42,891 nt of DNA from Candidatus Thorarchaeota archaeon (GTDB taxonomy: Archaea; Asgardarchaeota; Thorarchaeia; Thorarchaeales; Thorarchaeaceae). Position 1 is the stretch's first letter. Each line of letters begins with the position of its first letter. Both the position numbers and the translations under genes were made by a program. The notes under the pieces were generated by a model. That model did no database searches. It was not told the origin of the DNA and saw only the letters and a program-made list of their open reading frames with translations. This document shows, in pieces, positions 1-38,859 of the stretch. The stretch covers positions 1 through 42,891 of the forward strand of contig JBHLRS010000027.1 of NCBI GenBank assembly GCA_048882325.1. The letters run 5' to 3'.

Positions 1-345
1 AGCCTCCTCGATAGGTGCAACATCAATTGCATTCTCGATCGGAGCTCTGTCAGTCTCGTCCTGCAAGGGAGCTTCCTCAACAGCTTCCTCGATCGGAGCT
101 ACATCAATTGACTCTTCAGCAGGAGCCATGTCAGCTGCGTTCTCCACAGGAGCTACTTCAACTGCGTTCTCAATAGGAGCATGATCAACAGACTCTTCAG
201 CAGGAGCCATCTCAACAGCTTCCTCGATCGGAGCAACTTCAACTGCGTTCTCAATCAGAGCAACTTCAATTGCTTCCTGTATGGGAGCTCTGTCAGTTGT
301 ATCCAAGATAGTAGCACGATCTGTCTCGTCCTGCAACGGTGCAGC
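1..345 (-). repeat. Degenerate 27-nt coding tandem repeat (~12 units visible)
   Basis: ggagc (Ala-Pro) recurs with 27-nt period. Confidence 0.85.
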
Positions 346-549
346 ATCAACTGTGTTCTCAAAATTACCTCGACTAACTACACTCTCGAATGAGTGATCA
401 GCAGCGAGAATTACATTGCCGCCTCTAAGGTCGGCCTGGACACTCGGGCCATCTGTTGCAGCAACACCTATCGCTAGCATAATCACGAATGATATTGCAA
501 TAACAGCACCGATACCGAGAGCCAAACTATTGATTGTTCTTATCTTCAT
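1..549 (-). CDS. Secreted/membrane-anchored acidic protein with 9-aa tandem repeats (APxEE/NAVE/Dx); runs off the window edge
   Basis: Not in the ORF track. Manual translation from ATG 549: MKIRTINSLALGIGAVIAISFVIMLAIGVAA...APIEEAVEM APAEESVDH APIENAVEV..., open to position 1; AAGGAG SD upstream; hydrophobic N-terminus. Confidence 0.85.
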   Translation of the reverse strand, partial: MKIRTINSLALGIGAVIAISFVIMLAIGVAATDGPSVQADLRGGNVILAADHSFESVVSRGNFENTVDAAPLQDETDRATILDTTDRAPIQEAIEVALIENAVEVAPIEEAVEMAPAEESVDHAPIENAVEVAPVENAADMAPAEESIDVAPIEEAVEEAPLQDETDRAPIENAIDVAPIEEA

Positions 550-673: not shown

Positions 674-708
674 CGTATTAGTATTACGTATTACAAGATA
701 TAAGTATT
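674..708 (-). promoter_or_regulatory. TATA-containing promoter with GTAWTA repeats (copy 1 of shared 35-nt element)
   Basis: Ungapped match to 13732-13766: 7/7 and 19/20 blocks. Confidence 0.65.
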
Positions 709-867: not shown

Positions 868-3372
868 TTGAAAGACAAAGTAGTTGTCTGTACCCTTATT
901 GTTCTATTTCTATCAGTGTCTTTCTTGGTACCTATTAGAGTAGTACAGGAAACAAAAGAACCACTTGTGGCAGAGAAACAGATCGAGGTGGCTCAGGCCC
1001 AGATGGTTCTCTTTGACGAATCCCATGTGCCTTACGGTAGTTTCACTCACGATCTTTGGTTTTCAAATTTCACATCAGATCTAGAGGCTGAAGGATATAC
1101 AGTAGATAATATGACAAGTTGGGATGAGAACACCCTAATGTCAGCAGATGTAGTAATAATAGCAGTGCCCACAGTCGCTTATTCTATGAATGAGTTCTAC
1201 ACCTTGCATAACTTCCTAGCAAAGGGAGGTGGTTTCTTCCTGATTGGTGATATTCCATCAGTAAGCGAAGCTGCTGCTTTAGCTGAATTGTTTGGGTTTT
1301 ACTTTTCAGCAACTGAGCTTCAAGACAGTGACAATCATTATGGTCCTCTTAATTGGATACAATGGGATAGAGTATCGAATTTTGGTAATCATCCCATAAC
1401 AACTGGAGTTTCCAATTTAACCACATACCTTGGACACGGGATTATTGAATACCCAGGATTGGGAGTTCCTCTGATGATGATGGATGCTGACGAAAACAGC
1501 ACATACGCCGGATCCGGAGACTATTCTTCTGGAACTGCTGCTATGGTTGCAATTGAATATCCTGGTGGATTAGGAAGGATGGTAGTCACTGCAGACAGCA
1601 ATCAATTTTGGTCAATTGATTTCAATGGCGATGGTGATGAGGAGTACTATGAGGGAGATAATGATTTACTTGCACGGAATATTATCAATTGGCTCTCTAG
1701 TGCTCCTATCCCTGAGGACATCATTGTCTTTGATGAGAGCCACAATGCTCAGAGAAGGACTGGAGTGACATCGAAGCATTTCAATATCTTATTTGACGAG
1801 TCTGAAAGTCCTGAGTGGGGAATTGACAATAATGACAATGGAATTTACGGATGGGCAGAAGACAGCTCCTGGTATGGCGACCTAGCCGCATTCCTTGAAG
1901 GTAGTGGTATGAGTGTTGATAAAATGTCCACATGGGATTGGGTCACTGCTGCCTCATCGGATGTTCTTGTTCTTGTAGATCCAGACACTCTGTATGATAC
2001 GTCTGATGCTGAAGTTCTTAGGTCACTAGTCGCGCAGGGTCTCGGTCTATTATTACTTGGAGATAGAGGGACATGGATAGGCGATGGTACAGTGCAAATT
2101 GCTGAGTTGTTTGGTGTCGATTTCTATGATGGGACCTTGAGTGATTCTGACGAGAATTACAATGCAAATGAAGTATGGATTCTGATGGATGGAACTAATT
2201 TAGCAGACCATCCGTCACTTAGTGGTGTCTCCGAGGTCGGCTTAATTGCAACGGGAGGGTTCAACAACTTTCCGATTGACACTGAGATCATTCTAAGCTC
2301 TGACACTGACTCAAGTTCTGGATGGTTTGAAGAACCACCCGGTTCACCCTCAGCAGAAGGTGTACCATCTGCAATTGCATTTCAATATGGACGCGGAAGG
2401 GTAATGATGATTGCGGACAGTGGAATGTTCGCAAATGGAAATGATGAATTTCTTGAATTTGGGAATAATTCTCTCTTTGCAATAAATGCCATCCGTTGGT
2501 TAGCAGAAGGGACAACGTTCCTTGATTACTATCATTGTGCAAACGAATTGAGGAATCAAGGCTATGGTGTCATGGCGATGATAGAATTCAGCTCATCTTT
2601 CCTTGAAGGAACTGATGCACTAGTCTTGGCTAATCCTATTCTCTTTTATTCTGAAGGTGAGAAGACTGTAATAGACGAGTATGTTTCAGTTCAGGGTAAT
2701 GGATTGTTGATGCTTGGGGATGTTGGTGGTCCTGTTTCAAGCCTCAGAGATTTTGCTGCGGATTATGGAATCATCTTCGATGGATTGGGTTCATCATTAG
2801 TGGATGAAGATGACTTTGTGGAGCCTTCAATTCATGATCTCTTTCAGCTTGATGAGTTCAATCTTCAATCCCACTATCTCACAGAGGGTGTTGAAGGGTT
2901 GCTGTGGAGATGGGGAACAGGTATTATAGAGTATCCAGAAGATGCAGACGTGATTTTAGAGATGGATGACGACACCTTCTCAGAATGGGCTAATGGTTCT
3001 TCAGCAGCAGGCGTGGCAATGATGATAGCTTCAACTAATGGAACAGGTAGGATATTGACAATCGGGGATTCAAATCTCTGGGATAACACTGTTTTGGGTT
3101 CAGATATCTTTAGTGACAAGAAGACTATGACATTGTATGAATTGAACAACTCTCTACTACTGATCAATTCAATAGAGTGGCTACTTGGAGAAGGTAATGG
3201 AGGGACACCCACACCCTTTGAACTACCATGGTGGGCCTTGCCAGCTGTTGGTGGTGGGGTACTAGTGATTGCTCTTGGATTTGGAATCAGCAGACGTTCC
3301 AAAGGTAAGGAAACGACAGCAAAGAAATCCACTACGAAGAAGAAGACCAAGACAAAGACCAAGAAGAAGTGA
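868..3372 (+). CDS. Surface protein with three GIFT/DUF4350 (GldG/IFT52-like) domains, C-terminal TM helix and Lys-rich tail
   Basis: Repeated (V/L)FDES(H), GGG..L.GD, HP...GV, GR....(A/G)DS and N...WL motifs; signal peptide; TM helix then KKTKTKTKKK. Confidence 0.75.
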   Translation: MKDKVVVCTLIVLFLSVSFLVPIRVVQETKEPLVAEKQIEVAQAQMVLFDESHVPYGSFTHDLWFSNFTSDLEAEGYTVDNMTSWDENTLMSADVVIIAVPTVAYSMNEFYTLHNFLAKGGGFFLIGDIPSVSEAAALAELFGFYFSATELQDSDNHYGPLNWIQWDRVSNFGNHPITTGVSNLTTYLGHGIIEYPGLGVPLMMMDADENSTYAGSGDYSSGTAAMVAIEYPGGLGRMVVTADSNQFWSIDFNGDGDEEYYEGDNDLLARNIINWLSSAPIPEDIIVFDESHNAQRRTGVTSKHFNILFDESESPEWGIDNNDNGIYGWAEDSSWYGDLAAFLEGSGMSVDKMSTWDWVTAASSDVLVLVDPDTLYDTSDAEVLRSLVAQGLGLLLLGDRGTWIGDGTVQIAELFGVDFYDGTLSDSDENYNANEVWILMDGTNLADHPSLSGVSEVGLIATGGFNNFPIDTEIILSSDTDSSSGWFEEPPGSPSAEGVPSAIAFQYGRGRVMMIADSGMFANGNDEFLEFGNNSLFAINAIRWLAEGTTFLDYYHCANELRNQGYGVMAMIEFSSSFLEGTDALVLANPILFYSEGEKTVIDEYVSVQGNGLLMLGDVGGPVSSLRDFAADYGIIFDGLGSSLVDEDDFVEPSIHDLFQLDEFNLQSHYLTEGVEGLLWRWGTGIIEYPEDADVILEMDDDTFSEWANGSSAAGVAMMIASTNGTGRILTIGDSNLWDNTVLGSDIFSDKKTMTLYELNNSLLLINSIEWLLGEGNGGTPTPFELPWWALPAVGGGVLVIALGFGISRRSKGKETTAKKSTTKKKTKTKTKKK

Positions 3373-12987: not shown

Positions 12988-13320
12988 TTAGGAAGGGGAT
13001 TCAACATCCAATATTGGAATCACATACCTCTGGATATAACCAGTTTCAGCATCATATGAAACACTCTTGAGCGTGCTTCGGAACGCAGGAGCAATAAGAT
13101 CCTCATCAAATGAATGAGAGAGTAGAATGAGTTGGGCCCCTTGTGATGAAATGAAGAGAGTGGCTGTCTTGATTGTGTTTGAATGAGCGATTCTATCAAT
13201 CCCTTCCATTATCTCATCTGCAATTCTGATTGCAGCTTCGTAGACGGTATCGTGTCCAGAAACACCCCGAGCATCATAGACCATGTACGACGAGGTCCGA
13301 GTGTTCACCTGTGCCTCCAT
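12988..13320 (-). CDS. Hypothetical protein
   Basis: 110-aa ORF with TTTATA upstream. Confidence 0.7.
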   Translation of the reverse strand: MEAQVNTRTSSYMVYDARGVSGHDTVYEAAIRIADEIMEGIDRIAHSNTIKTATLFISSQGAQLILLSHSFDEDLIAPAFRSTLKSVSYDAETGYIQRYVIPILDVESPS

Positions 13321-13374
13321 GCTTTTCTGTACATTGTCAAGGGTATAAAATCACCGAGAAAAGTGAAAATGAGA

Positions 13375-13417
13375 AAAAGAGAATGAGAGTGCCCGCATTA
13401 CGCGAGCACACGCTCAT
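13375..13417 (-). terminator. Hairpin plus T-rich tract ending micro-protein cassette 2
   Basis: GTGCTCGCG-TAA-TGCGGGCAC with outer ATGAG/CTCAT, then TCTCTTTTT. Confidence 0.6.
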
Positions 13418-13445
13418 TTGATCTTCAATGGCTGATGCTCTGTGA

Positions 13446-13547
13446 CTACGCACCTTTACGGTGGAGCCAAGCAAAAGCCAGTGCTTCAGTGGTCCAGGCT
13501 TTTCGAGCCTTGGTCAACTTCTTTCTATCTGTTTTAGCTAGTGCCAG
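13446..13547 (-). CDS. Micro-protein B2 (33 aa, CTG start) MALAKTDRKKLTKARKAWTTEALAFAWLHRKGA
   Basis: AAGGAGGT SD 7 nt before CTG; 8/31 ungapped identities to B1. Confidence 0.6.
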   Translation of the reverse strand: MALAKTDRKKLTKARKAWTTEALAFAWLHRKGA

Positions 13548-13568
13548 TTTGATTACCTCCTTAATCGC

Positions 13569-13676
13569 TCACTTTATGCGAGCATAGTCGTAGTACAGGG
13601 ACTCAAGCGTTCTGAGTCTCGGATTCCGATTCCTTCTCATTATGAAGGGCTCATCCTTCTGATTTTCATCAGCCAT
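13569..13676 (-). CDS. Micro-protein A2 (35 aa) MADENQKDEPFIMRRNRNPRLRTLESLYYDYARIK
   Basis: GGAGGAG upstream; shares E.F..RR........LE.L.Y(D/E) with A1. Confidence 0.7.
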   Translation of the reverse strand: MADENQKDEPFIMRRNRNPRLRTLESLYYDYARIK

Positions 13677-13692
13677 TTTTCCTGCATCTCCT

Positions 13693-13729
13693 CCAACCGC
13701 CGTCATTCCTTTCGAACTCTTACGGTTGG
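13693..13729 (-). promoter_or_regulatory. 5' leader hairpin with possible kink-turn
   Basis: CCAACCGT/GCGGTTGG stem; alternative register CCG-TAA-GA-GTTC...GAAT-GA-CGG. Confidence 0.5.
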
Positions 13730-13731
13730 CA

Positions 13732-13766
13732 CGTATTATGTAATACTATTACAACATATAAGTATT
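13732..13766 (-). promoter_or_regulatory. Promoter of cassette 2 with TGTAATA-N-TATTACA palindrome
   Basis: Perfect inverted repeat 13739-13753 beside the TTATAT box; matches 674-708 and 14130-14164. Confidence 0.7.
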
Positions 13767-13901
13767 GTGGTTACGTGTTAAAGATTGGGAGTTGAATGGT
13801 TGAATGGCATAAATAATGTGCAAAACAAATAACAATGATCTGAGAGCCCACACCAATGCAGCCCCTCCACAGTGACGCAATGACTGATGCATCCAGTGCT
13901 A

Positions 13902-13997
13902 CTAAGCTCTAAAACTATAAGTACGTGCATAAGACTTAGTACGTTGAAGCTTGTGCTCTAGCTCACGTTTCAGCTTTTGATTTTCTGCTCGCGCCAC
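13902..13997 (-). CDS. Micro-protein B1 (31 aa, GTG start) MARAENQKLKRELEHKLQRTKSYARTYSFRA
   Basis: GAGGTGA SD 5 nt before GTG; double stop TAG TAG. Confidence 0.65.
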   Translation of the reverse strand: MARAENQKLKRELEHKLQRTKSYARTYSFRA

Positions 13998-14018
13998 CTG
14001 TGTCACCTCTCCTCTTGT

Positions 14019-14114
14019 TCACTCGTATATTTCATAGTGCAAGAATTCCAGGAAATGAAATCCTGAAATTTCATCTCTTCGCTTTGCGAAGGTTTCATTG
14101 GTTGCATCAGTCAT
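14019..14114 (-). CDS. Micro-protein A1 (31 aa) MTDATNETFAKRRDEISGFHFLEFLHYEIYE
   Basis: ATG just downstream of the promoter motif; 8/22 ungapped identities to the A2 core. Confidence 0.7.
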   Translation of the reverse strand: MTDATNETFAKRRDEISGFHFLEFLHYEIYE

Positions 14115-14129
14115 TCTTGTCAACCTGTA

Positions 14130-14164
14130 TGTAATATGTAATACTATTTTATGTAATAAGTATT
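14130..14164 (-). promoter_or_regulatory. Promoter of cassette 1
   Basis: 27/35 ungapped identity to 13732-13766. Confidence 0.65.
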
Positions 14165-14233: not shown

Positions 14234-14719
14234 ATGATGTTACTACGGCAACAAAACGTATGTCTTAATGTCGGAGAGGAGGCTCCTGACTTTGAATTGC
14301 CAGATCAAGATGGAAATAGGGTTCGCCTCTCAGATTACAGGGGGAAGAAAAATGTTCTTCTTGCACTGAATCCAGGGGACCTGAATGATTCATGCAAGAA
14401 CTACCTCTTACTCTACAGGGACAATCTTGAGAGCTACAAGGAATTAGATATCCAGGTTGTAGGAATAAACATGGATTCTATCAGGAAGAACAAGACATGG
14501 ACTCAGAGCATGCGGGGTCTCGGATATCCAGTCTTGTCTGACCGTGAACCCCTCGGCGATGTCACGCTAAGGTATGATTGCTTTGTTCCAAAACAAGGGT
14601 ATGGAAAGCGCGGACTGTTCCTCATCGACAAGGAAGGTATCATCAGGCATATCGAGGTGTCTGACGAGAGTGGAACCTGTCCAAACATCGGTGTATTGGT
14701 AAAGAGTCTCCAGACCTGA
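14234..14719 (+). CDS. Peroxiredoxin (AhpC/TSA family)
   Basis: [23 protein letters not shown]......[11 protein letters not shown]. Confidence 0.9.
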
Positions 14720-24912: not shown

Positions 24913-26274
24913 TTACCACCAGAGAAGCATCACATGGTTGCTAGTTCCTTCGTCTAACACTGTACTGCTGTCACCTTTTGTAAGGACCCAGCAGTCTGAT
25001 GTCCCAGGGCCCAGCCAGATCGCCGCAATATCGGCTTCCAAATCAGCAATGTCATTCAGGACCAGAATCCACCCACTAACTGTATCTCCGAAAATGCCAG
25101 TGAGAATACCTGCCTCTCCACTTCCACTAATGGTGTTACTGACAAGTCGTAGGTCCTGCACACCATTACCAACGATGCCCCAAGCATAAGAACCGCCCAA
25201 TACAATATCATTCTGATAAGCAAAGACTGATACTCCCTCTACCTCTCCCGGCACAGCAAGCCAGTCGTCAATCCAGATCCCATTCGAGTAACCAGGCACT
25301 TCGACATGATTGTGATGGATATAAGCCCGACCTGGTTCTAAGCTAGAAGCGTACATACCATTTGCCAGATAGATACCGTACCAACCACCCTCTCCGACCG
25401 AAACATCGTTGAATGCCACCTCCGCTTGTGAGTTGTAGAGGTCATAGATCTCAGGACCTATCATGGTATTGACGTATGTGTTTCGTACAATCTGAATACG
25501 CGAATCCACTGATTGGCCAGGTACGACACTTGAGCCTAGGCTGTTCTCGAAGTGACATCCCTCAATCACAAACGTGCCACTGATCCTCTCATTCGCGAAG
25601 GTATCAATATTGAAGCGACCCTGAATGAATAGTCCATTCTGGATGCTAAAGCCGAATACACCATAAATCTCACCGATGTCACCCAAGAACTCAAGATTCT
25701 TGGCAGTCACGTCGAAGTGGGATACGGTCTCTTCGTTCCACTCATCGACGACTTTACCCGTGATTTCGATTGGGTTCATAGCCCTGAAACCACCAGCATA
25801 TTCTGGCAACCACAATTCAGTCGGGTATTCTACCGTCACTGTGAAGTCGCTCAGCTGTATCTTGTATGGGTGTCTATGGGTGCTGGTGGAATACTCATCC
25901 TGATAAAACATTAACATTCGTGGATTCTCAAAACCAAGATTGGCTGGGTCCTGCAATGGAAAGTTATCTATACTATGAAGAACTGTCTTTCCAGTCCCAG
26001 AACCTTTGAATGTCCCATCAAAGTTGACACCAACGAGTGTTTCACACAGATAGAAGTCACCTTCTTCAAGAAGGACTGTTCCCTTACCTGCGGCAATCAC
26101 GTCATCTATCGCTTGTTGAATATTCGCAGTGTCTGTTACTCCAGTCGTGTCACCTGATGGAGCGACTACGAATGCATGGCTTCCGTAATGTCTCCCGGTC
26201 ACTGGACCAACGATGGACATACAAAATGCAAAACACAGAGCCACCGCTAGTATTCTCATTCTGTTTTGTTCCAA
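24913..26274 (-). CDS. Secreted right-handed parallel beta-helix protein
   Basis: DT..IQ.AID, GTV.L..G.F, G.G...TVL, repeated ..N.I.. strands; start probably TTG 26274 (GGAGGAG SD) or ATG 26259. Confidence 0.85.
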   Translation of the reverse strand: MEQNRMRILAVALCFAFCMSIVGPVTGRHYGSHAFVVAPSGDTTGVTDTANIQQAIDDVIAAGKGTVLLEEGDFYLCETLVGVNFDGTFKGSGTGKTVLHSIDNFPLQDPANLGFENPRMLMFYQDEYSTSTHRHPYKIQLSDFTVTVEYPTELWLPEYAGGFRAMNPIEITGKVVDEWNEETVSHFDVTAKNLEFLGDIGEIYGVFGFSIQNGLFIQGRFNIDTFANERISGTFVIEGCHFENSLGSSVVPGQSVDSRIQIVRNTYVNTMIGPEIYDLYNSQAEVAFNDVSVGEGGWYGIYLANGMYASSLEPGRAYIHHNHVEVPGYSNGIWIDDWLAVPGEVEGVSVFAYQNDIVLGGSYAWGIVGNGVQDLRLVSNTISGSGEAGILTGIFGDTVSGWILVLNDIADLEADIAAIWLGPGTSDCWVLTKGDSSTVLDEGTSNHVMLLWW

Positions 26275-26341
26275 ATTCTCTCCTCCTGCATCCCTACTCG
26301 AAACCGTAGGGAGTACCACATGTTGCTCTACAGTAGTCATC

Positions 26342-26427
26342 GTCAATCAAGACTCGCCTCATACAACGAGTCGTAACCCCGGGGCCAAAGTTAGTCTTCG
26401 TAACCTTTATTGTGTAATATTATTACA
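26342..26427 (-). promoter_or_regulatory. Conserved 5' leader element, copy 1
   Basis: 64/86 manual identity to 38860-38945; includes TGTAATA-T-TATTACA. Confidence 0.75.
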
Positions 26428-29911: not shown

Positions 29912-32900
29912 TCACATGGTTAGAATCACATCAATGAGTGCCTGTGCGAGAGCTATGAGTGCGTTTCCTTCCTCCTCAGATAGCTTTCCTGAGTTGATCA
30001 TTGAATATATCTGAGAGATGAGGTCGTTGAGCTTTTGAGTTGCTTGTGTCAGCTTGCCTTTGTCCATGAGGTCACGTGCAGCATCAAGTTTCCTTAGCAG
30101 TGGGCTAATGTCCTTACTAGTCAAGACATCTTCTTCGACCAGTTCCTCCAGATCCGAATCAATGACTTCACTGACTTCTTGAGGTGTATTGAAGGTGAGA
30201 GGATCTGTGAAGTAGAAACGCCATTCGTCGCCGTCAATGAAGTAGTCTCCATCTGAATCAGCGTCATTGGGATCTGTTCCGATTTCAAGCTCACCATAAT
30301 ATGAGAGACCATCATTATCGAAATCACCAGCTACGAGTGGATACATGTCATAGCCTTCACTTGGCCAAGGAATATCTGTGTCTCCGATTCCGTCTCGATC
30401 AAAGTCCACTCCGATGTAGTCAGACCAGATATTGCCCTCGAGTAATTCAGGATTATACCAGTCATTCCCGGATGGTGAGTAGAGATCAGTGGCTTGAATA
30501 GTGTTCCATATGATGCTGTTCCAATAGATCAGATTACCTTCTGATTCAAACAGGAAGATTCCATTTCCGCACAATGTAATGTTGTTCTGAGTCAGATTGT
30601 TGTAATGCGAGAGATTGAGATAGATCCCAAAGTAGGTATTATCATAACAGGTATTGTTGATCAGCCAGTTGTAAATAGAAGCATTCAGGAATATACCCAC
30701 ATTATTCGAAGTGAATGTGTTATCCCGAATTTCGTTCCCGATACTTCCCCCTCTAATGGAAATACCATATCCTAGATTTCCATAGCAGTCGTTCGCTCTG
30801 ACAATATTGCCATCTCCATTCCAGAAATGAATTCCCGCGTATCCATTGTTGTACACGGTGTTATGCTCAATCGTATTGTCGGTAGCTCCAAGTCCAACAC
30901 CAATGCCATTGACATCATTGTCATAGCACCAGTTGTCCGAAACAGTGTTCAAGTTACTATCTCCGACTACAACGATTCCTTCAAAGTCATTCGAGAAACA
31001 ATCGTTACCCGTTACAGTGTTTGAGTCAGAGTTTTGTATGAAGATACCTTGATAATTGTCCCAGCAGTCGTTCTCAAGAATATCGTTGTCACTGCTAGTA
31101 CCTCTCACAGCGATTCCCCAATAATTCCCATAGCAGTCATTGTCTACAATGGTGTTGTCATATCCCAAGAATATGTGGATTCCCGTACCTTCATCGCCTA
31201 GATTGTTGTACACAAAGTTATGCACAATTTGGTTATTATAGGCTCCGACCCCAATACCTATTCCATTCCCAAGAAGGCCATCATTGTCAAAACAGTAGTT
31301 ATCTGTCACGACACACTGTGTACTATCTAATAACACAGCAATACCTTCCCAGTCATTGGAATAACAATGGTTGTCTGTTATTGTCACAGCAAAACTATAG
31401 TCCACACGGATACCATAGCAGTTGTCAAAACAGTAATTGTTTGTCACCTCTGCATATTGAACATTGGAGAGCCAGATCCCTGCATATGCTTCAATAAATG
31501 GTATCTCACCCAGTCCACCTTCAGGTACTGAGGTGCCTGTCACAGTACAATCACGAATGATGAAATACGTGTCAACAATGTTCAGAACCTTGATGCAGCT
31601 TGCATCAGCTCCGTTGACATCGATGTAGTAGTCTTCAATGATGATTGGATCTCCATACTCTCCTGAACCAAGCCAACCATGCCAAGCATCCATAGCTCTG
31701 AGTTGCGCATCACCATCGATGTAGAACGGACCTGGATCGAGGGGATCAGTTAAGATTGTGAAAATCTCATCATAGTCACTCCAACCATCCATATCTGTGT
31801 CTGGATTGTACGGATCTGTGCCATAGATGTTTCTCTCTTCATAGTTCCATAGCCCATCTCCGTCATCATCAGGGACAATGATATCAGTATAGCCTACACT
31901 ATGGAGTAATTCTCTGGCGAGTATCACATCGCGATAAGCATCTGAAACTGCATCATATCCCGGAAACATTGGAAGGGTTGGGGTATGAACCAAATGGGGG
32001 TTGAGGCCTTCTAATCCAGCAGTGAGCATCAATTGTCTCCACATAACTAGATCTACTGCTTGGCGAACCTCCCGTATGGTAAGATGTTCATTACCAAGAT
32101 TTGACAGCGCGACAGCCCACCCAGTTGTATCAACACCAGATGCCCAATCGTCGCGACCCCACATTATCCAGAAAGGCTGATCTTCAGCCCAAATCGCCTG
32201 CAACTGACGGATGATGTCAAGGGCTTCACTGCTTAAATCCGGCGGATTCGGCCAGTTTGCATTCCAATCAATGTTGAGTGCGAGCAATGCTGCCACTAGG
32301 TCTTCATAATCCGGATTGTAGTATCCTTCATTGAAGTTACTGTCTATTGAAGCAAAATCTAACCCTGAGATGTATCCATTAGAGCCTAATCCAAAGATTG
32401 CAACATCAAAGCCAACATAGAGAGAGATACTTTCATCCCATATTGGAGGACCTGCAGATGTTGGACGCTCAAGCCCATAGTCTTCAGGATTAGTCATAGA
32501 GTAAATCCATTGTTGCCAAGGCAATGCGTGAATAACTAACTCAATACCGATACAACGAAGGTCTCTGGCCAAATTCTCTGCACGCATCATTGCGATTTCA
32601 GATTCCACAGCCACTAGAAGGTGCAGAGTAAACAATGGTTGTCCTGAAATTGTAGGCCATGGAGGATCAACAACAAGAGGATCAGTAAAGACCCAATAGA
32701 CCTCGTCACCATCTCGCCATAGATCACCATCTGTGTCCCACTCCATTGGATGAGTAAAGAAGGTGTAGAGTTCTTCAGGATCTAAAATTCCGTCAAAATC
32801 ACTGTCCGCCTCCAATGGATTTGTCGGGACACCCTGTGGGTTGTTGCCAAAGATCTCATCAACGTCGCTGATCCCGTCTGAGTCCCCGTCAACGCTAGTT

Positions 32901-35900
32901 GGGTCGGAGAAGTAGTATCGCCACTCCATTCCATCTGAGAGTGAATCACCGTCTGTGTCTGGATTCTCAGGATCTGTACCAATGATTAGCTCGCCGGTGT
33001 CTGAGATTCCATCGCCATCACTATCTATCACAAGCGGGTACATGTCAAGACCATGCCATGGGATGTCTGTGTCCCCAATCCCATCTAAGTCAAGGTCCAC
33101 TCCGATATAGTCTGACCAGATATTGCCCTCGAGAAGGTCTGGATGATACCAGAAGTTTCCATTCGGTGAGTCAATGTCAGTAGCCTGGTTGACGTTATCA
33201 ATAATCGAATTGTGATAAATGGTGTTTGATGAACTTCCCATCAGATAGATCCCATATTCATTATCAGAACAGATGTTTCCAGCCACCTCATTGTCATCTG
33301 CTGAGTTCAGAGTGATACCTCGTCGCATATTAGTACTGAAAGTGTTTCCAATTATATCGTTGTTATCAGACAGGTATAGGTAAATTCCATCATATTGATT
33401 TGTATTGCAGGTGTTCCCGATGAGCTCATTCTCTGTTGCACCATTGAGATAGATGCCTACTAGATTCACTGTGCATGTGTTGTCTGAAATTGTGTTCGAG
33501 TGCGAATCGACAAGGTAGATTCCAAACCAACCATTTCCGTCACATGTATTATCTGCGATTGAGTTCAAAGTAGAAGTTTCAAGAGAGATTCCAGAATCAC
33601 TGTTGCCATTGCAAGTGTTCCCAACCAGTATATTCCAATGTGAATCATCGAGTTGAATACCAAATTCCAGATTCCCGGAGCATATATTTCCAATTATATG
33701 ATTGCCAGAAGACTCACCCAATCCGATTCCAACATCATTCCCTGAACATGTATTCCAATAAAGAATATTTGAATTCGACTCGATAAGGGCAATTCCAGTC
33801 TCACCGTTACCGTCACAGGAGTTCTCGAAAATCACGTTCATATCTGAGAACTCTAATCGGACACCTGTGTAGAAATTATAGTTGCATATGTTCCTGGTGA
33901 CGTTATTCTCGTGTGAGTTGCTGAGGAATATACCAAAGAGGGAATTATTGTTGCAGGTGTTCCCAACCACTGCATTACCCGGACCTGAGCTCTCGAGTTG
34001 GATGCCATGTTCACCATTACCAAAACAGGTGTTTCCACTGATCAGGTTGCCATTTGAGACAATGAGCTTGATACCGTTGTAGAAGTTGTCATTGCACGTG
34101 CTCCCAATTATATGGCCATAATGAGAATTATAGAGGAAGATGCCAAACTGATCATTCTCATTGCAGATATTATCAATCAGTATGTGATTTGTCGAGTCTC
34201 CTACATCTATACCAGCGAATCCGTTGTAGTTGCATGTGTTCTCCCGCACCTCAACAGCATGAGAGTTCAATAACCAGATACCTCGGTAAACATTGCTATT
34301 GCAGGTGTTTTCAATGAGGTCATTCCCGGTTGTGTCGTGGACGTAGATTCCGATTTCGTTGTAGTTGCATGTGTTTTGTTCAACAGTGTTTCCGGGACCT
34401 CGAAGCTCAATCCCATAGTTGTTATACTTACAGGTGTTATCTCGGATTGTGTTTCCATTTGCCGATGGTGACGTAACAATACCAAAGCCATTGTTGTTAC
34501 ATTCATTCCTCAGGACAGTGCAGCCATCCGAGTTGTAACCTAGACCTATTCCAGCATACGCATTGTCATAACAGACATTGTCAACAATGGTGTTCCAAGA
34601 GCTTCCTAATCCCAGAATTATTCCGCTGTAATCATGGTCGTAACATAGATTATCAGAGATCGTGTTCCAATTACTGTCCCAACCAAGGGCAATGCCCTCC
34701 CAGGTATTCCCATAACAGGTATTCTCAGAAATTAGACAGTCTGAAGATTGATTGAGTGTGATTCCCCAGACGTTTCCGAAACAGATGTTATCGATTATCT
34801 TGGCCCCGACAACGTTGTACAGGTATATCCCTGCACGACCGTCTGTTGGTAAAGTCCCAACTGTTGCACCCGTGAGGGTACATCCACGAACCATGACATA
34901 GCTAGAAACGATGTTCCGAATCTCGATACAGCTTTTGTCAGCACCTTCAGCATCGAAATAGTAGTTCTCAATGATGAACGGGTCACCCTCAGCACCAGTA
35001 CCAGACCATCCATATAGCTCCGCTTGTGCCGCTAAGTCTTCATCACCATCGATATACAATGACTCCAGAGTGAATGCATACTCTGATGTGTTGAATACCA
35101 TCCCACCAACCAAAATGTTTCCTATGTAGAGGTCCACCTGGAAGAATCGTCCAAGCTCAAACTCCTGAATAAGAGGATCAATATAGAGTGTGACTACTTC
35201 ACTTGTCCCTTGGATAATACGTTGTGAGGAGTATTGTAGTATCTCGGCATACCAAACATCTGTATGTTCTCCCAGTTGTCTGACCTTGAGATTGACATAA
35301 GCAGTGCTGTTTATCAGTTGACCAACCAAGAATGAAATCTCACCTGGTGATTTCATCTCAATAATTTCAACATTCTCATAGCCCACATTATTAGTCTGGT
35401 CCTCGGGAGTTTCTCGGGAGGGGTCAATCTGTACCTTCAAACATCCGCTGATGAGTGTGGGCGTGAAGGTAAAGGACGCAATCGCAGATTCACCATGGTC
35501 AATTTGAACATAGTCTTTGTATCCTACCATATCAGTAGCAATTCCACCTCCAAATGGCACCTCCCAAAGAGTTACTTCAACGGGATCATTATCTGGAACA
35601 TCATTGCCTCTGTTATACACTGTGACATCGATTCGATTCAGTTCATTCTGTTTCAGTCGTAACTTCTCTTTCCATACCCCTGGGCTAATCTCACGATAAA
35701 TCTTGATGTCAGGGTTGTCCCATAACAGACCTCTTCCATCCCACGTGCTTGAATCATCTTGAGAGTATAGATACATATCTGGCGTATCTGTTGAGGTGCG
35801 ACGCTGGAAGCAGCTCACAGCATCAGCAGAGTATGAGTTGGAACCAACCCATATGTTCATGTATCTGGTATCCCCGAGGTCGTCTATTGGATACCATATG

Positions 35901-38785
35901 TAAGAGCCAGCCCCAGTCGGATAAGCAGGATGAAGAGTTTCCCATCCATTTTGTCCCTCATATTTAATGGTGACATAGGCCCCTGGAAAATTAGAGAATT
36001 TGATTTCTAGGGTGTCACCATCTATGCCTCCTACTGCTGAAACTAATACATCTCCTGCATGAGGATTGAGCTCAACTCTTGTGCCAAAGCTAGTAACAGG
36101 AATCTCATCGATGTGGGGTGCGAAGTTCCTTTTTGTCACAGTCACAGAAACATCAGATCCAATGGCGGGATCTATATTGAACAGAGCCTGTCCGTTACTA
36201 TCAGTATATTCAACTGCATAGACATACTGTCCTTGATGAAGACAGACTTTCGCAAACTTGACCGGTTTATTGGTGTCATCATTTTTCACTGTCACAGCAA
36301 AAACCTGAGGGTCAGTGGATCCAATTGACTCTGGATAAGAAACATCGAGAATTGTTGGTGTAGACGTCCAGAGCTTGGTCTCAGGGTCTCCGAAGAGATG
36401 ATATTCCTCGAAGGTTGTCTGAGCAACCTCAAAATTATCATGGAGTGTCCCCCATTGTTTCGCAGCGTGTAATTTGCCAAGTAATAACGCCCCTCCCATT
36501 TCATATACTGGTTGGTTCTCAGACTCCAAAAATCCTGGCCAGAATGATTGGATGAGTCCATCCATAAGATATGAGCTAATTATTGAATAAGCAAGACGTG
36601 AAGACGAGATTGCTGCAACAGCTCCATCTTCATCTCGTGTGATTTCCTCCGCAAAGGACTCCTTGGCGTACTCCTCAAATGGATTAACATGATTATTATA
36701 AATATCATCTACGTCCACCAGCCATCCCCCTGAATAATAACGTGTGTACATATCCATATGTTCCTGATCAGTTTCTCCATCAAACCATCCACTGTCACAT
36801 GCCATACTGATAACTAGGGGAGTGAATCCTGCGTCGCCGGTATTCAAGAGACCTAAGATATCGTAGTTTTGATTATCAGTATCAAAGTAAGGGGTAAGCC
36901 ATCCGTTAGTATCATCTCTATCACCTCTATCCCAACCATTATCATCAGTGTCAAACCTGTAAATCATGTTCTCACTCCCGCCATGACCATAGTAGAGAAC
37001 AAGGAATTTTCCATCGTTAATAGCATTCGAGATTTCGGTTAATGATTGGCCCCAAGCTATGTCATCATGATATGCATCGAACCAAAAGAAAGTAGGATCA
37101 TTAATGTATGTCAGCCAATCGGAAACCAAATCCGAACCAACATGTTCCAAAACATCATGGAACTTCTGAGGCATATGATGCTCCCAAGTGCTTGAATATA
37201 GCGTTTCTATTTCTTTTCCAAAGGAGTCTTCAACATAGTCTCTGATTCTTTCCAAAGTATATACAAACGGGAAACTCGGATCCTCATTTCCAGAATGCTC
37301 GGTGTCTTCGAATTTTGCATTGGAGAGAATACCTTCGTAGAATGAATCCGTCAGAGGTGGGGATGTTTCATAGAATATGATCTTGTCAACTGCAGTTTCA
37401 GCTTCTGCTGGATTATCAACTGATATGCGACCGTAGATCATATCTGGGAAATACTCCGCCCCTTCAATATCGAAATAACCCAGATCTGACGCGATATCTG
37501 GTCCAGAAACACCTGTGTTCGGATCATACATTTTGTAATTAGTAAATAGCCGCCTGAATTCCGCTTGATGTTGTAGATTATAAGTAGTTGGAATCATCTC
37601 GACATCGCCTAGAAATAAGACATAGGTCGGTGCAGGATTCCAAGTGTTGTAGGCTCGTTCTATCGCATATTCGATAAGAGCTGAATCTGGTGAAACTATC
37701 ATGAATGCAGCAGGAACTCCTTTCTTTGTCTTCCAAGCCGCCAAATCAAGAGCATATTGTTCCAGTTCAGCAACTGTAATTACCAAGTACTCGACGCCTT
37801 CAACGTTTTCCTCACCAGCACTTATGGAATAAGTATTATTGTCTCTTGCCACTAGCGGTCCAGTTGGTATATCAACTGGATTATAATCCAAGAGAATATT
37901 GGACATGATGTTTTCAAAGGCTTCAGAGCGTAATTCCTCCCGAATTGGTTCTATCTGGGCGGGGCTGCTGTAGTCAGCCTTCACCAACATCTGGGAGTGC
38001 GCAATCGTCCTGTCCTTGTCAGGGTTGTATTGGATAGGGAAGAAGTTAATGGATGATAATCTATGACCCCTCATTATCAGAGGTGTTGCAGGATTTCCTC
38101 CTTCGATACTTGTCCTAACTGCTGGGAAGTACGCGTTGTTGGTATATGCTGGACCTTCTTCTGTTGGGAGAATTGCGTCAACCTGTGTATCCTCTGACCG
38201 ATTCCCTTCAAATATCATCATGACCTGTGGAGGCGAGGCCGGACGTATATTGTAGGTCTCGGTGATGATTGTTGATGAGTTTGTGATAGCACTCATGGTA
38301 ACAGCAATATCGTGTGGTATTTCTACTAGCTCTGAGAGCAGGGGAACCATTGGAGCTCCAGGCTCACGACTATATGTGGCTCCAGGCATCTCCAAGAAAT
38401 CGTAAGTATTGCCCTCTATCGTGACAGTCCTCTTCCAGAACCCATAGAAATCAGCCACAATCGTGATACCTGTTGTATCGGAAGTTGTCACATGCACTTC
38501 AGCAGGTGTACCAGCGGGAGTTGCACCCCCATCAAGAGACACCCATACTCCACCCTGAGCCAGGACCGTTCTCACCTCACAAGGACGGACTTCATATGGT
38601 TCATTCACAAAACCGAAGTCGCTATCCCTCTCAAGACTTGACTCACCTACAATGTCAGGACCTGTGTCATTAGTAACATCGATCATCGAAACTGATGATG
38701 CTGATGAGATTACAAACATGGCTGCAACAGCAACCACAACAATATTCAGAAGTACCTTCTTTCGAGTCCAGCTGACCCTTTTCAT
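29912..38785 (-). CDS. Giant secreted protein: C25 propeptide + gingipain-type C25 peptidase, Ig-like domains, two NosD-type beta-helices, TSP3-like Ca-binding repeats, SBP5-like insert, helical C-terminal domain
   Basis: PG.P.VP, WK..KG, YVLFLGD, GRIS, YYGHGG, MACDSG, LFGDP; GI.L..S..N.I..N.C..N repeats; DSDGDG..D..E; ATG 38785 follows GGAGGAG. Confidence 0.9.
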   Translation of the reverse strand: MKRVSWTRKKVLLNIVVVAVAAMFVISSASSVSMIDVTNDTGPDIVGESSLERDSDFGFVNEPYEVRPCEVRTVLAQGGVWVSLDGGATPAGTPAEVHVTTSDTTGITIVADFYGFWKRTVTIEGNTYDFLEMPGATYSREPGAPMVPLLSELVEIPHDIAVTMSAITNSSTIITETYNIRPASPPQVMMIFEGNRSEDTQVDAILPTEEGPAYTNNAYFPAVRTSIEGGNPATPLIMRGHRLSSINFFPIQYNPDKDRTIAHSQMLVKADYSSPAQIEPIREELRSEAFENIMSNILLDYNPVDIPTGPLVARDNNTYSISAGEENVEGVEYLVITVAELEQYALDLAAWKTKKGVPAAFMIVSPDSALIEYAIERAYNTWNPAPTYVLFLGDVEMIPTTYNLQHQAEFRRLFTNYKMYDPNTGVSGPDIASDLGYFDIEGAEYFPDMIYGRISVDNPAEAETAVDKIIFYETSPPLTDSFYEGILSNAKFEDTEHSGNEDPSFPFVYTLERIRDYVEDSFGKEIETLYSSTWEHHMPQKFHDVLEHVGSDLVSDWLTYINDPTFFWFDAYHDDIAWGQSLTEISNAINDGKFLVLYYGHGGSENMIYRFDTDDNGWDRGDRDDTNGWLTPYFDTDNQNYDILGLLNTGDAGFTPLVISMACDSGWFDGETDQEHMDMYTRYYSGGWLVDVDDIYNNHVNPFEEYAKESFAEEITRDEDGAVAAISSSRLAYSIISSYLMDGLIQSFWPGFLESENQPVYEMGGALLLGKLHAAKQWGTLHDNFEVAQTTFEEYHLFGDPETKLWTSTPTILDVSYPESIGSTDPQVFAVTVKNDDTNKPVKFAKVCLHQGQYVYAVEYTDSNGQALFNIDPAIGSDVSVTVTKRNFAPHIDEIPVTSFGTRVELNPHAGDVLVSAVGGIDGDTLEIKFSNFPGAYVTIKYEGQNGWETLHPAYPTGAGSYIWYPIDDLGDTRYMNIWVGSNSYSADAVSCFQRRTSTDTPDMYLYSQDDSSTWDGRGLLWDNPDIKIYREISPGVWKEKLRLKQNELNRIDVTVYNRGNDVPDNDPVEVTLWEVPFGGGIATDMVGYKDYVQIDHGESAIASFTFTPTLISGCLKVQIDPSRETPEDQTNNVGYENVEIIEMKSPGEISFLVGQLINSTAYVNLKVRQLGEHTDVWYAEILQYSSQRIIQGTSEVVTLYIDPLIQEFELGRFFQVDLYIGNILVGGMVFNTSEYAFTLESLYIDGDEDLAAQAELYGWSGTGAEGDPFIIENYYFDAEGADKSCIEIRNIVSSYVMVRGCTLTGATVGTLPTDGRAGIYLYNVVGAKIIDNICFGNVWGITLNQSSDCLISENTCYGNTWEGIALGWDSNWNTISDNLCYDHDYSGIILGLGSSWNTIVDNVCYDNAYAGIGLGYNSDGCTVLRNECNNNGFGIVTSPSANGNTIRDNTCKYNNYGIELRGPGNTVEQNTCNYNEIGIYVHDTTGNDLIENTCNSNVYRGIWLLNSHAVEVRENTCNYNGFAGIDVGDSTNHILIDNICNENDQFGIFLYNSHYGHIIGSTCNDNFYNGIKLIVSNGNLISGNTCFGNGEHGIQLESSGPGNAVVGNTCNNNSLFGIFLSNSHENNVTRNICNYNFYTGVRLEFSDMNVIFENSCDGNGETGIALIESNSNILYWNTCSGNDVGIGLGESSGNHIIGNICSGNLEFGIQLDDSHWNILVGNTCNGNSDSGISLETSTLNSIADNTCDGNGWFGIYLVDSHSNTISDNTCTVNLVGIYLNGATENELIGNTCNTNQYDGIYLYLSDNNDIIGNTFSTNMRRGITLNSADDNEVAGNICSDNEYGIYLMGSSSNTIYHNSIIDNVNQATDIDSPNGNFWYHPDLLEGNIWSDYIGVDLDLDGIGDTDIPWHGLDMYPLVIDSDGDGISDTGELIIGTDPENPDTDGDSLSDGMEWRYYFSDPTSVDGDSDGISDVDEIFGNNPQGVPTNPLEADSDFDGILDPEELYTFFTHPMEWDTDGDLWRDGDEVYWVFTDPLVVDPPWPTISGQPLFTLHLLVAVESEIAMMRAENLARDLRCIGIELVIHALPWQQWIYSMTNPEDYGLERPTSAGPPIWDESISLYVGFDVAIFGLGSNGYISGLDFASIDSNFNEGYYNPDYEDLVAALLALNIDWNANWPNPPDLSSEALDIIRQLQAIWAEDQPFWIMWGRDDWASGVDTTGWAVALSNLGNEHLTIREVRQAVDLVMWRQLMLTAGLEGLNPHLVHTPTLPMFPGYDAVSDAYRDVILARELLHSVGYTDIIVPDDDGDGLWNYEERNIYGTDPYNPDTDMDGWSDYDEIFTILTDPLDPGPFYIDGDAQLRAMDAWHGWLGSGEYGDPIIIEDYYIDVNGADASCIKVLNIVDTYFIIRDCTVTGTSVPEGGLGEIPFIEAYAGIWLSNVQYAEVTNNYCFDNCYGIRVDYSFAVTITDNHCYSNDWEGIAVLLDSTQCVVTDNYCFDNDGLLGNGIGIGVGAYNNQIVHNFVYNNLGDEGTGIHIFLGYDNTIVDNDCYGNYWGIAVRGTSSDNDILENDCWDNYQGIFIQNSDSNTVTGNDCFSNDFEGIVVVGDSNLNTVSDNWCYDNDVNGIGVGLGATDNTIEHNTVYNNGYAGIHFWNGDGNIVRANDCYGNLGYGISIRGGSIGNEIRDNTFTSNNVGIFLNASIYNWLINNTCYDNTYFGIYLNLSHYNNLTQNNITLCGNGIFLFESEGNLIYWNSIIWNTIQATDLYSPSGNDWYNPELLEGNIWSDYIGVDFDRDGIGDTDIPWPSEGYDMYPLVAGDFDNDGLSYYGELEIGTDPNDADSDGDYFIDGDEWRFYFTDPLTFNTPQEVSEVIDSDLEELVEEDVLTSKDISPLLRKLDAARDLMDKGKLTQATQKLNDLISQIYSMINSGKLSEEEGNALIALAQALIDVILTM

Positions 38786-38859
38786 TAGATGTCCTCTCCT
38801 CCATCTTCCCCACACATGAAACGAGGGGCACGCTACACAGATGTCATTATGCAACCCTT

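Follow-up and report, generated by a model that had tools for sequence, protein, structure and literature searches.

The window, a stretch of 42,891 nucleotides, carries on its minus strand two consecutive cassettes of identical layout, in which a promoter is followed by a small open reading frame (ORF A), an SD sequence, a second small reading frame (ORF B) and a hairpin (Table 1). They are flanked by a divergent AhpC/TSA peroxiredoxin gene (14234-14719) and by a gene encoding a 110-aa protein (12988-13320, minus strand), beyond which lie a double GNAT gene and a class I/II aminotransferase gene. A sequence-only reading of this region had described four micro-ORFs, promoters identical at 27 of 35 positions, an SD sequence in front of each B and a hairpin behind it, and all of these features are present. 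The gene for the 110-aa protein is assigned to a separate transcription unit outside the cassette, since it has its own conserved TATA box, the gene order is changed in L235 and a gene is inserted in L016. The protein itself has no match in Pfam or NCBIfam, and its gene is kept beside the cassette in most orthologous loci. Farther along, positions 29912-38854 (minus strand) hold an ORF of 2980 aa.

Table 1. Features of the two cassettes and of the adjoining promoter (window coordinates)
Feature	Position	Strand	Basis and remarks
Cassette 1 promoter block	14130..14164	-	TATA box ~14153-14162, then operator repeats 14130-14148; conserved in orthologs
ORF A1, 31 aa, A-class microprotein	14019..14114	-	A-profile match, E 8.8e-11; counterpart in L233
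B1 SD	14003..14014	-	sequence
ORF B1, GTG start, 31 aa, diverged B-class	13902..13997	-	codon changes, shuffles, ungapped match to L233 B
3′ lock element 1 (predicted)	13879..13898	-	18/20 complementary to A1 start region 14096-14115; inverted repeat; pairing probability 0.99
Cassette 1 terminator-like hairpin	13842..13867	-	predicted fold
Cassette 2 promoter block	13732..13766	-	TATA box 13756-13764 and palindromic operator 13739-13753; conserved
Cassette 2 5′ leader hairpin	13693..13729	-	followed by SD-like 13688-13694; folds in orthologs
ORF A2, 35 aa, A-class microprotein	13569..13676	-	length conserved; coding region doubles as chain of conserved hairpins
B2 SD	13555..13562	-	GAGG core invariant across all aligned units
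ORF B2, CTG start, 33 aa, B-class	13446..13547	-	dN/dS 0.19; family profile match
3′ lock element 2 (predicted)	13427..13437	-	11/11 complementary to A2 start region 13667-13677; inverted repeat; covariation
Cassette 2 terminator-like hairpin (13383-13417) and U-rich tract	13362..13417	-	compensatory changes at 6/9 pairs
TATA box of 110-aa gene	13341..13350	-	conserved; ~25 nt upstream of gene 12988-13320

Coding capacity of the micro-ORFs

A DNA search located the cassette in a further 20 genomes of the genus (relatives named Candidatus Thorarchaeota), mostly in the same gene order. A lack of frame-preserving homologs or the presence of stop codons in orthologous loci had been named beforehand as evidence against translation; neither was encountered, as the annotated A and B frames contain no stop in 16 of 16 orthologs. 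In the remaining sense frames, breaks occur in 7 and 16 of these orthologs for A and in 15 and 16 for B. Ortholog comparison gave a dN/dS of 0.19 and a pS of 0.59 for B2, the corresponding values for the neighbouring 110-aa gene being 0.12 and 0.72. The dN/dS of A2, 0.64, is weak evidence of coding when taken alone. Because the core of A2 (codons 18-32) has a pS of only 0.15, compared with 0.59 in B, A is constrained at the RNA level as well as at the protein level. The coding function of A is supported by A-class genes at unrelated loci, which keep the peptide motif while using different codons, including both TCN and AGC for serine. At the level of sequence comparison these data establish that both ORFs are protein-coding, and the proposal of translated, paralogous micro-ORFs under a common regulated promoter is supported by ortholog conservation and open frames. 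The non-ATG starts that had been pointed out for the B frames are present in the window (GTG in B1, CTG in B2) but are not conserved: B2 orthologs begin with ATG, as do 97 of 110 family members, and the GTG and CTG codons are thus best regarded as local strain quirks.

B1 differs from its ortholog in G027 by 5 synonymous and 3 non-synonymous codon changes, and scores 9.9 bits on the B-family profile, a value reached by 4 of 2000 shuffled sequences. The syntenic locus of GCA_044344285.1 (L233) contains the same tandem pair of cassettes with an intact B in the slot of B1, to which B1 aligns without gaps at 14 of 31 identical positions. By these comparisons B1 is a diverged member of the B class. 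Cassette 1 (window 13800-14164) is closer to a subtype found in distant genomes (L013, L015 and L018; 69% for L015) than to cassette 2, a relationship that suggests an old duplication with differential loss.

Two other readings of the frames were considered and rejected. A and B are in frame with each other in both window cassettes, as fusion by stop-codon readthrough or selenocysteine insertion would require, but the frame is not conserved across orthologs; a tRNA-Sec gene is predicted by ARAGORN elsewhere in the genome (C26:31242-31332). An antisense reading frame is open in some orthologs and broken in others and in the window.

Peptide family and array forms

In profile searches, the source genome yielded 10-11 B-class copies at 5 loci. 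The B profile matched approximately 500 times across the taxonomic family, in 74 of its 86 genomes, and a search of 314 other genomes of the phylum gave no match; the A profile gave 38 matches in 32 of the 86. A third class, C, has a conserved terminal E-A-T motif that overlaps the terminator hairpin. Arrays occur in the full form A-B-B-C and as B-B-C, B-B, A-B and single genes, and since A-B-B-C is the full array of the family, the window cassettes represent a reduced A-B form. This array context, together with the 3′ UTR pairing and the shared operator described below, goes beyond what had been read from the window alone. Four more B-class arrays are found in the source genome at L061, L062, L063 and L064 (C31, C14, C18 and C8, respectively), two of them with a C-class gene; in these arrays the stop codons embed the next SD sequence.

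A search of 1.84 billion representatives returned six matches, all of this peptide kind. No significant match to the peptides was obtained in Pfam, NCBIfam, PDB sequences, Foldseek or the ESM Atlas, the cassette RNA has no match in Rfam, and no relatives were found on viral contigs, in agreement with the initial failure to recognise a family. A literature search found no description of these microproteins. As far as the searches reach, the family is undescribed and confined to Thorarchaeota (Asgard archaea). In a comparison for common origin, the A and B classes come into register at the C-terminal motif, but only weakly (hhalign E 0.03; 2 of 8 A peptides beat shuffles), and no alignment was obtained between C and B. 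Prediction of an A+B complex scored 0.02, which carries no weight either way.

B-class peptides are 27-37 aa long and basic (median charge +6). A basic, variable linker connects their short conserved N-terminus to a likewise conserved C-terminal end in which, by column conservation, S-T-x-A is followed by a hydrophobic residue and then by [YH]-A-Y-x-Y. AlphaFold predicts a confident helix only at residues 20-29 (pLDDT ~87), and this C-terminal helix carries small residues and Tyr/His. No transmembrane stretch was found: the median of the best 19-residue hydropathy is -0.21 in the family and the four window peptides do not exceed 0.02. A PCNA PIP-box reading of the A core was discarded, its position pattern being gone in distant A genes, and suggested likenesses of B to eL39, to histone H3/H4 segments or to RHH helix 2 received no profile support.

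The conserved C-terminal aromatic motif raises the possibility that the peptides are scattered RiPP precursors whose Y-x-Y or H-x-Y motif is cross-linked by a radical SAM enzyme acting in trans. A candidate enzyme exists in the form of an orphan PqqD(RRE)-rSAM-SPASM gene in the genome (C19; L129:6602-8029, minus strand), which is present in 60 of the 86 family genomes; the ortholog search gave 59 of 85 in the family and only 4 distant matches elsewhere in the phylum. The overlap is at family level only, however, and within the limits set by MAG incompleteness the enzyme is present in 9 of 12 peptide-negative genomes, where 8.4 would be expected, while 23 peptide-positive genomes have no detected enzyme. 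No peptide gene lies near any of 25 enzyme loci, no maturase or protease lies beside any of ~60 arrays, and no YcaO or P450 was found. We consider this reading unlikely.

It is improbable, too, that the cassettes encode leaderless multi-peptide antimicrobials (archaeocins) exported by MFS pumps, although in size, cationic character and arrangement as leaderless tandem paralogs the peptides recall aureocin A70 and garvicin KS. Several other arrays directly precede MFS transporter genes. Arrays at other loci have two different upstream motifs, one of which, a long motif present in three of the L061-L064 arrays, is common to MFS, 1102-aa GNAT and bactofilin-domain genes. The median GRAVY, on the other hand, is -0.7 for B and -1.3 for A, compared with +0.4 to +0.7 for A70 and KS. 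No transporter or immunity gene is conserved at the window locus, and the occurrence of the peptides in nearly all genomes of the family points to a core role as opposed to patchy weaponry.

Operator and predicted 3′ lock element

The palindromic operator lies just behind the TATA box, which is the position of a repressor site. Elsewhere in the source genome the operator motif stands before genes for two RHH-like regulators, for ARPP-1 and a shorter ARPP-1 paralog, and for some proteins that are secreted or membrane-bound. Five other genomes contain 14 exact operator sites: five lie upstream of RHH-like genes, four of A-type cassettes, two each of ARPP-1-type genes and of a 56-aa gene, and one of the gene for a secreted protein; a reversed-pattern control gave 2 sites. 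These occurrences demonstrate an operator in the cassette promoters that, judged by its motif, is common to the RHH-like regulator and ARPP-1 genes. The regulator is weakly assigned to the RHH class, by Pfam RHH_1 matches of two homologs (E 0.02-0.03). Three genera without a match to the regulator are also without A, yet have B, although as kin they are not independent cases. For ARPP, an activity on ADP-ribose within conflict systems has been proposed (PMC9503650). The suggestion that the cassettes have a stress-regulatory function is plausible in light of this regulon; a dedicated A+B toxin/antitoxin-like pair, the other possibility that was raised, is not supported.

The genome has four RHH-like regulator paralogs, and those at L124:3201-3545 (plus strand) and L127:1251-1598 (minus strand) have the operator in their own promoters; one regulator gene is divergent from the ARPP-1 gene (L127:1689-2678). 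Within the window, operator copies at 674-708 (minus strand) and 26413-26427 lie before genes for a signal-peptide protein of 183+ aa (1-549, minus strand) and a 477-aa protein (24913-26346, minus strand), which are candidate regulon members. An unannotated gene of 56-62 aa, conserved in other genera, is found behind the operator at L125 ~2020-2200 (plus strand; genome C22:11949 region) and at L217 and L219.

Directly behind the B stop codon, both cassettes contain an element of 10-20 nt that is complementary to the start codon of their own A. Over 10 bp in 16 orthologs this helix is 99.4% paired, compared with 31-46% for slid controls. Two positions are changed on both sides and three are changed to wobble pairs, counts that come from 10-13 bp, comprise few independent compensatory events among close relatives and are inflated by relatedness. 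The match is kept in L039, L040 and L080 despite divergent A starts, and both L233 cassettes have it, each with its own variant. The element is confined to this locus type and is absent from other array types. The alignments thus demonstrate that a 3′ element complementary to the A start codon covaries with it.

Folding models give a probability for pairing of the A start with the element of 0.92 and 0.99 in the window and of at least 0.78 in 12 of 17 units. The predicted unpaired fraction of the A start is 0.19 in the full-length RNA and 0.61 after removal of the 3′ end, whereas accessibility of the B ribosome-binding site is unaffected (0.53/0.52). In the free fold of 5 of the 17 units the element prefers the C-terminal codons of B itself. 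A modelled ribosome in the B C-terminus closes the A lock (at least 0.85) in 16 of 17 units. A terminating ribosome that covers 15 nt past the B stop, an assumed footprint, is predicted to open the lock, whose element lies 8-13 nt from the stop, in most units but not in three with a 13-nt offset.

A two-ORF mRNA in which 5′-3′ pairing blocks the upstream start is reminiscent of hok/mok (PMC4147584), and the cassettes might be read as a toxin/antitoxin-like module, with A as toxin and B as antidote, or as a type I locus of the hok/mok kind in which A is the leader and B the toxin. A lock that allows A only during translation of B would suit a toxic A. The downstream neighbour of A is nearly always B, and losses fall on A: it is cut to 7 codons in L016 and is gone from the second cassette of L017 and from L235, with B intact in each. 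Against this, most B genes lie at loci without an A (4 of 5 loci in the source genome) and A occurs without a nearby B in L173, so that the obligate co-occurrence characteristic of type II systems does not hold here (L016 and L235 likewise). No peptide forms a hydrophobic toxin helix or is hydrophobic enough for a membrane toxin, the ortholog alignment contains no conserved antisense promoter, chromosomal synteny is stable and viral matches are lacking. The dedicated A+B toxin/antitoxin-like pair that was originally envisaged must therefore be considered improbable.

We also give little credence to a reading of the ORFs as cis-acting leader or arrest peptides, in which stalling on the C-terminal motif would shift the RNA structure and control an upstream or downstream gene. 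Conservation does cluster immediately ahead of the stop codon, in most close orthologs the 3′ element can pair with either of two partners (the A start and the B C-terminal codons), closure of the lock by a ribosome in the B C-terminus is what the models predict, and some arrays are translationally chained to MFS genes. Most arrays, including those of the window, nevertheless end in a terminator-like hairpin without a coupled gene, and cassette 1, L013, L015, L018, L039, L040 and L080 lack the alternative partner. That the structured RNA is the functional product and ORF A is incidental is very improbable: the cassettes do have fold z-scores of -5.5 and -3.1 and synonymous sites in the A core are frozen, but B is under clear protein selection, A-class peptides encoded at unrelated loci use different codons and lack the lock, and no match was found in Rfam.

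Proposed mechanism and relation to known systems

The reading that we favour, tentatively and with a probability of roughly 0.4, is that the cassettes encode repressor-controlled, trans-acting, helix-docking microproteins of which A is limited by the RNA lock. Each cassette would produce a short, separately promoted mRNA for two cytoplasmic microproteins that act in trans. An RHH-like repressor bound behind the TATA box would keep the cassette silent until stress or conflict is signalled. A would be translated from the nascent mRNA, after which the completed 3′ end would lock the A AUG; as the ribosome-binding site of B would stay open under the lock, B would be the main product of mature mRNA. 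The lock could be reopened by a ribosome that terminates on B at a distance of 8-13 nt from the element, and the output of A would thereby be tied to translation of B. The C-terminal helix of each A, B or C peptide would serve to dock it onto a larger target in the cell, and the basic arm would bind either nucleic acid or a surface of acidic character (the ribosome, the transcription machinery or a regulator). Action in trans is suggested by the covarying hairpin at the end of the cassette, by the separate TATA box of the next gene and by neighbours that differ between loci; arrays located directly before MFS transporters argue against it, as they fit export or cis control. We infer expression, the identity of the repressor, the dynamics of the lock and target docking.

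A broader version, which we regard as doubtful, would make this a lineage-wide three-class microprotein system with, at this locus, a closed-loop mRNA whose upstream gene is unlocked when the downstream gene is translated (reverse translational coupling), which would set the dose of an effector peptide induced by stress or conflict within an RHH/ARPP-1 regulon.

Standard annotation overlooks most of the approximately 500 gene copies in 74 Thorarchaeota genomes, so that comparative studies miss a conserved layer of Asgard biology. Peptides of this length can be synthesised, and the lock can be addressed with a reporter and one compensatory mutation, making the claims testable without culturing. 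Few examples of post-transcriptional control are known from Asgard archaea, and their number would grow with a long-range, covarying lock on the start codon of an archaeal mRNA and with a regulon that ties the peptides to ARPP-1.

By its sequence organisation, the layout is like that of a hok-type locked bicistronic mRNA, while membership in type I or type II toxin/antitoxin systems, bacteriocins or RiPPs fails on the features that were tested. The hok mRNA folds back on itself, 5′ end to 3′ end. In hok/mok, translation through the upstream ORF becomes possible only once the 3′ end of the full-length mRNA has been removed or refolded (PMC4147584). The hok/sok locus of plasmid R1 (mok-hok) shares with the cassettes two small ORFs on a short mRNA and long-range pairing over a start, which is predicted here. 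The cassettes differ from it in having no hydrophobic toxin, in their location on an archaeal chromosome, in the absence of sequence similarity and in a B that has its own strong SD sequence, with an accessibility unaffected by the lock. In coupling by RNA unfolding, a ribosome on one ORF melts structure that hides the start of another (PMC12548453); here the predicted geometry is reversed, with the stop of the downstream ORF adjoining the element that hides the upstream start.

Aureocin A70 and garvicin KS are leaderless peptides of 30-34 aa with charges of +4/+5 (PMC6131525). The cassettes resemble such leaderless bacteriocins, including the cereucins, as tandem cationic paralogs of 30-35 aa that have no leader and are usually unannotated, but their peptides are hydrophilic, no dedicated ABC exporter or immunity gene accompanies them at the window locus, and there are several loci per genome with different regulators. 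Triceptides and aminopyruvatides are radical-SAM RiPPs with aromatic three-residue motifs. Short peptides with a C-terminal Y-x-Y or H-x-Y and an RRE-rSAM-SPASM enzyme in the genome are common ground with their precursors, in contrast to which no clustered or co-varying maturase, protease or exporter is found here. Sda, MciZ and ComS of Bacillus are trans-acting regulatory microproteins of 30-50 aa with a short docking helix and tightly regulated promoters. The peptides described here are like them in small size, in a short conserved helix predicted to dock and in regulated promoters; they have no sequence relation to them and belong to a multicopy, three-class family with predicted control of peptide ratio at the RNA level.
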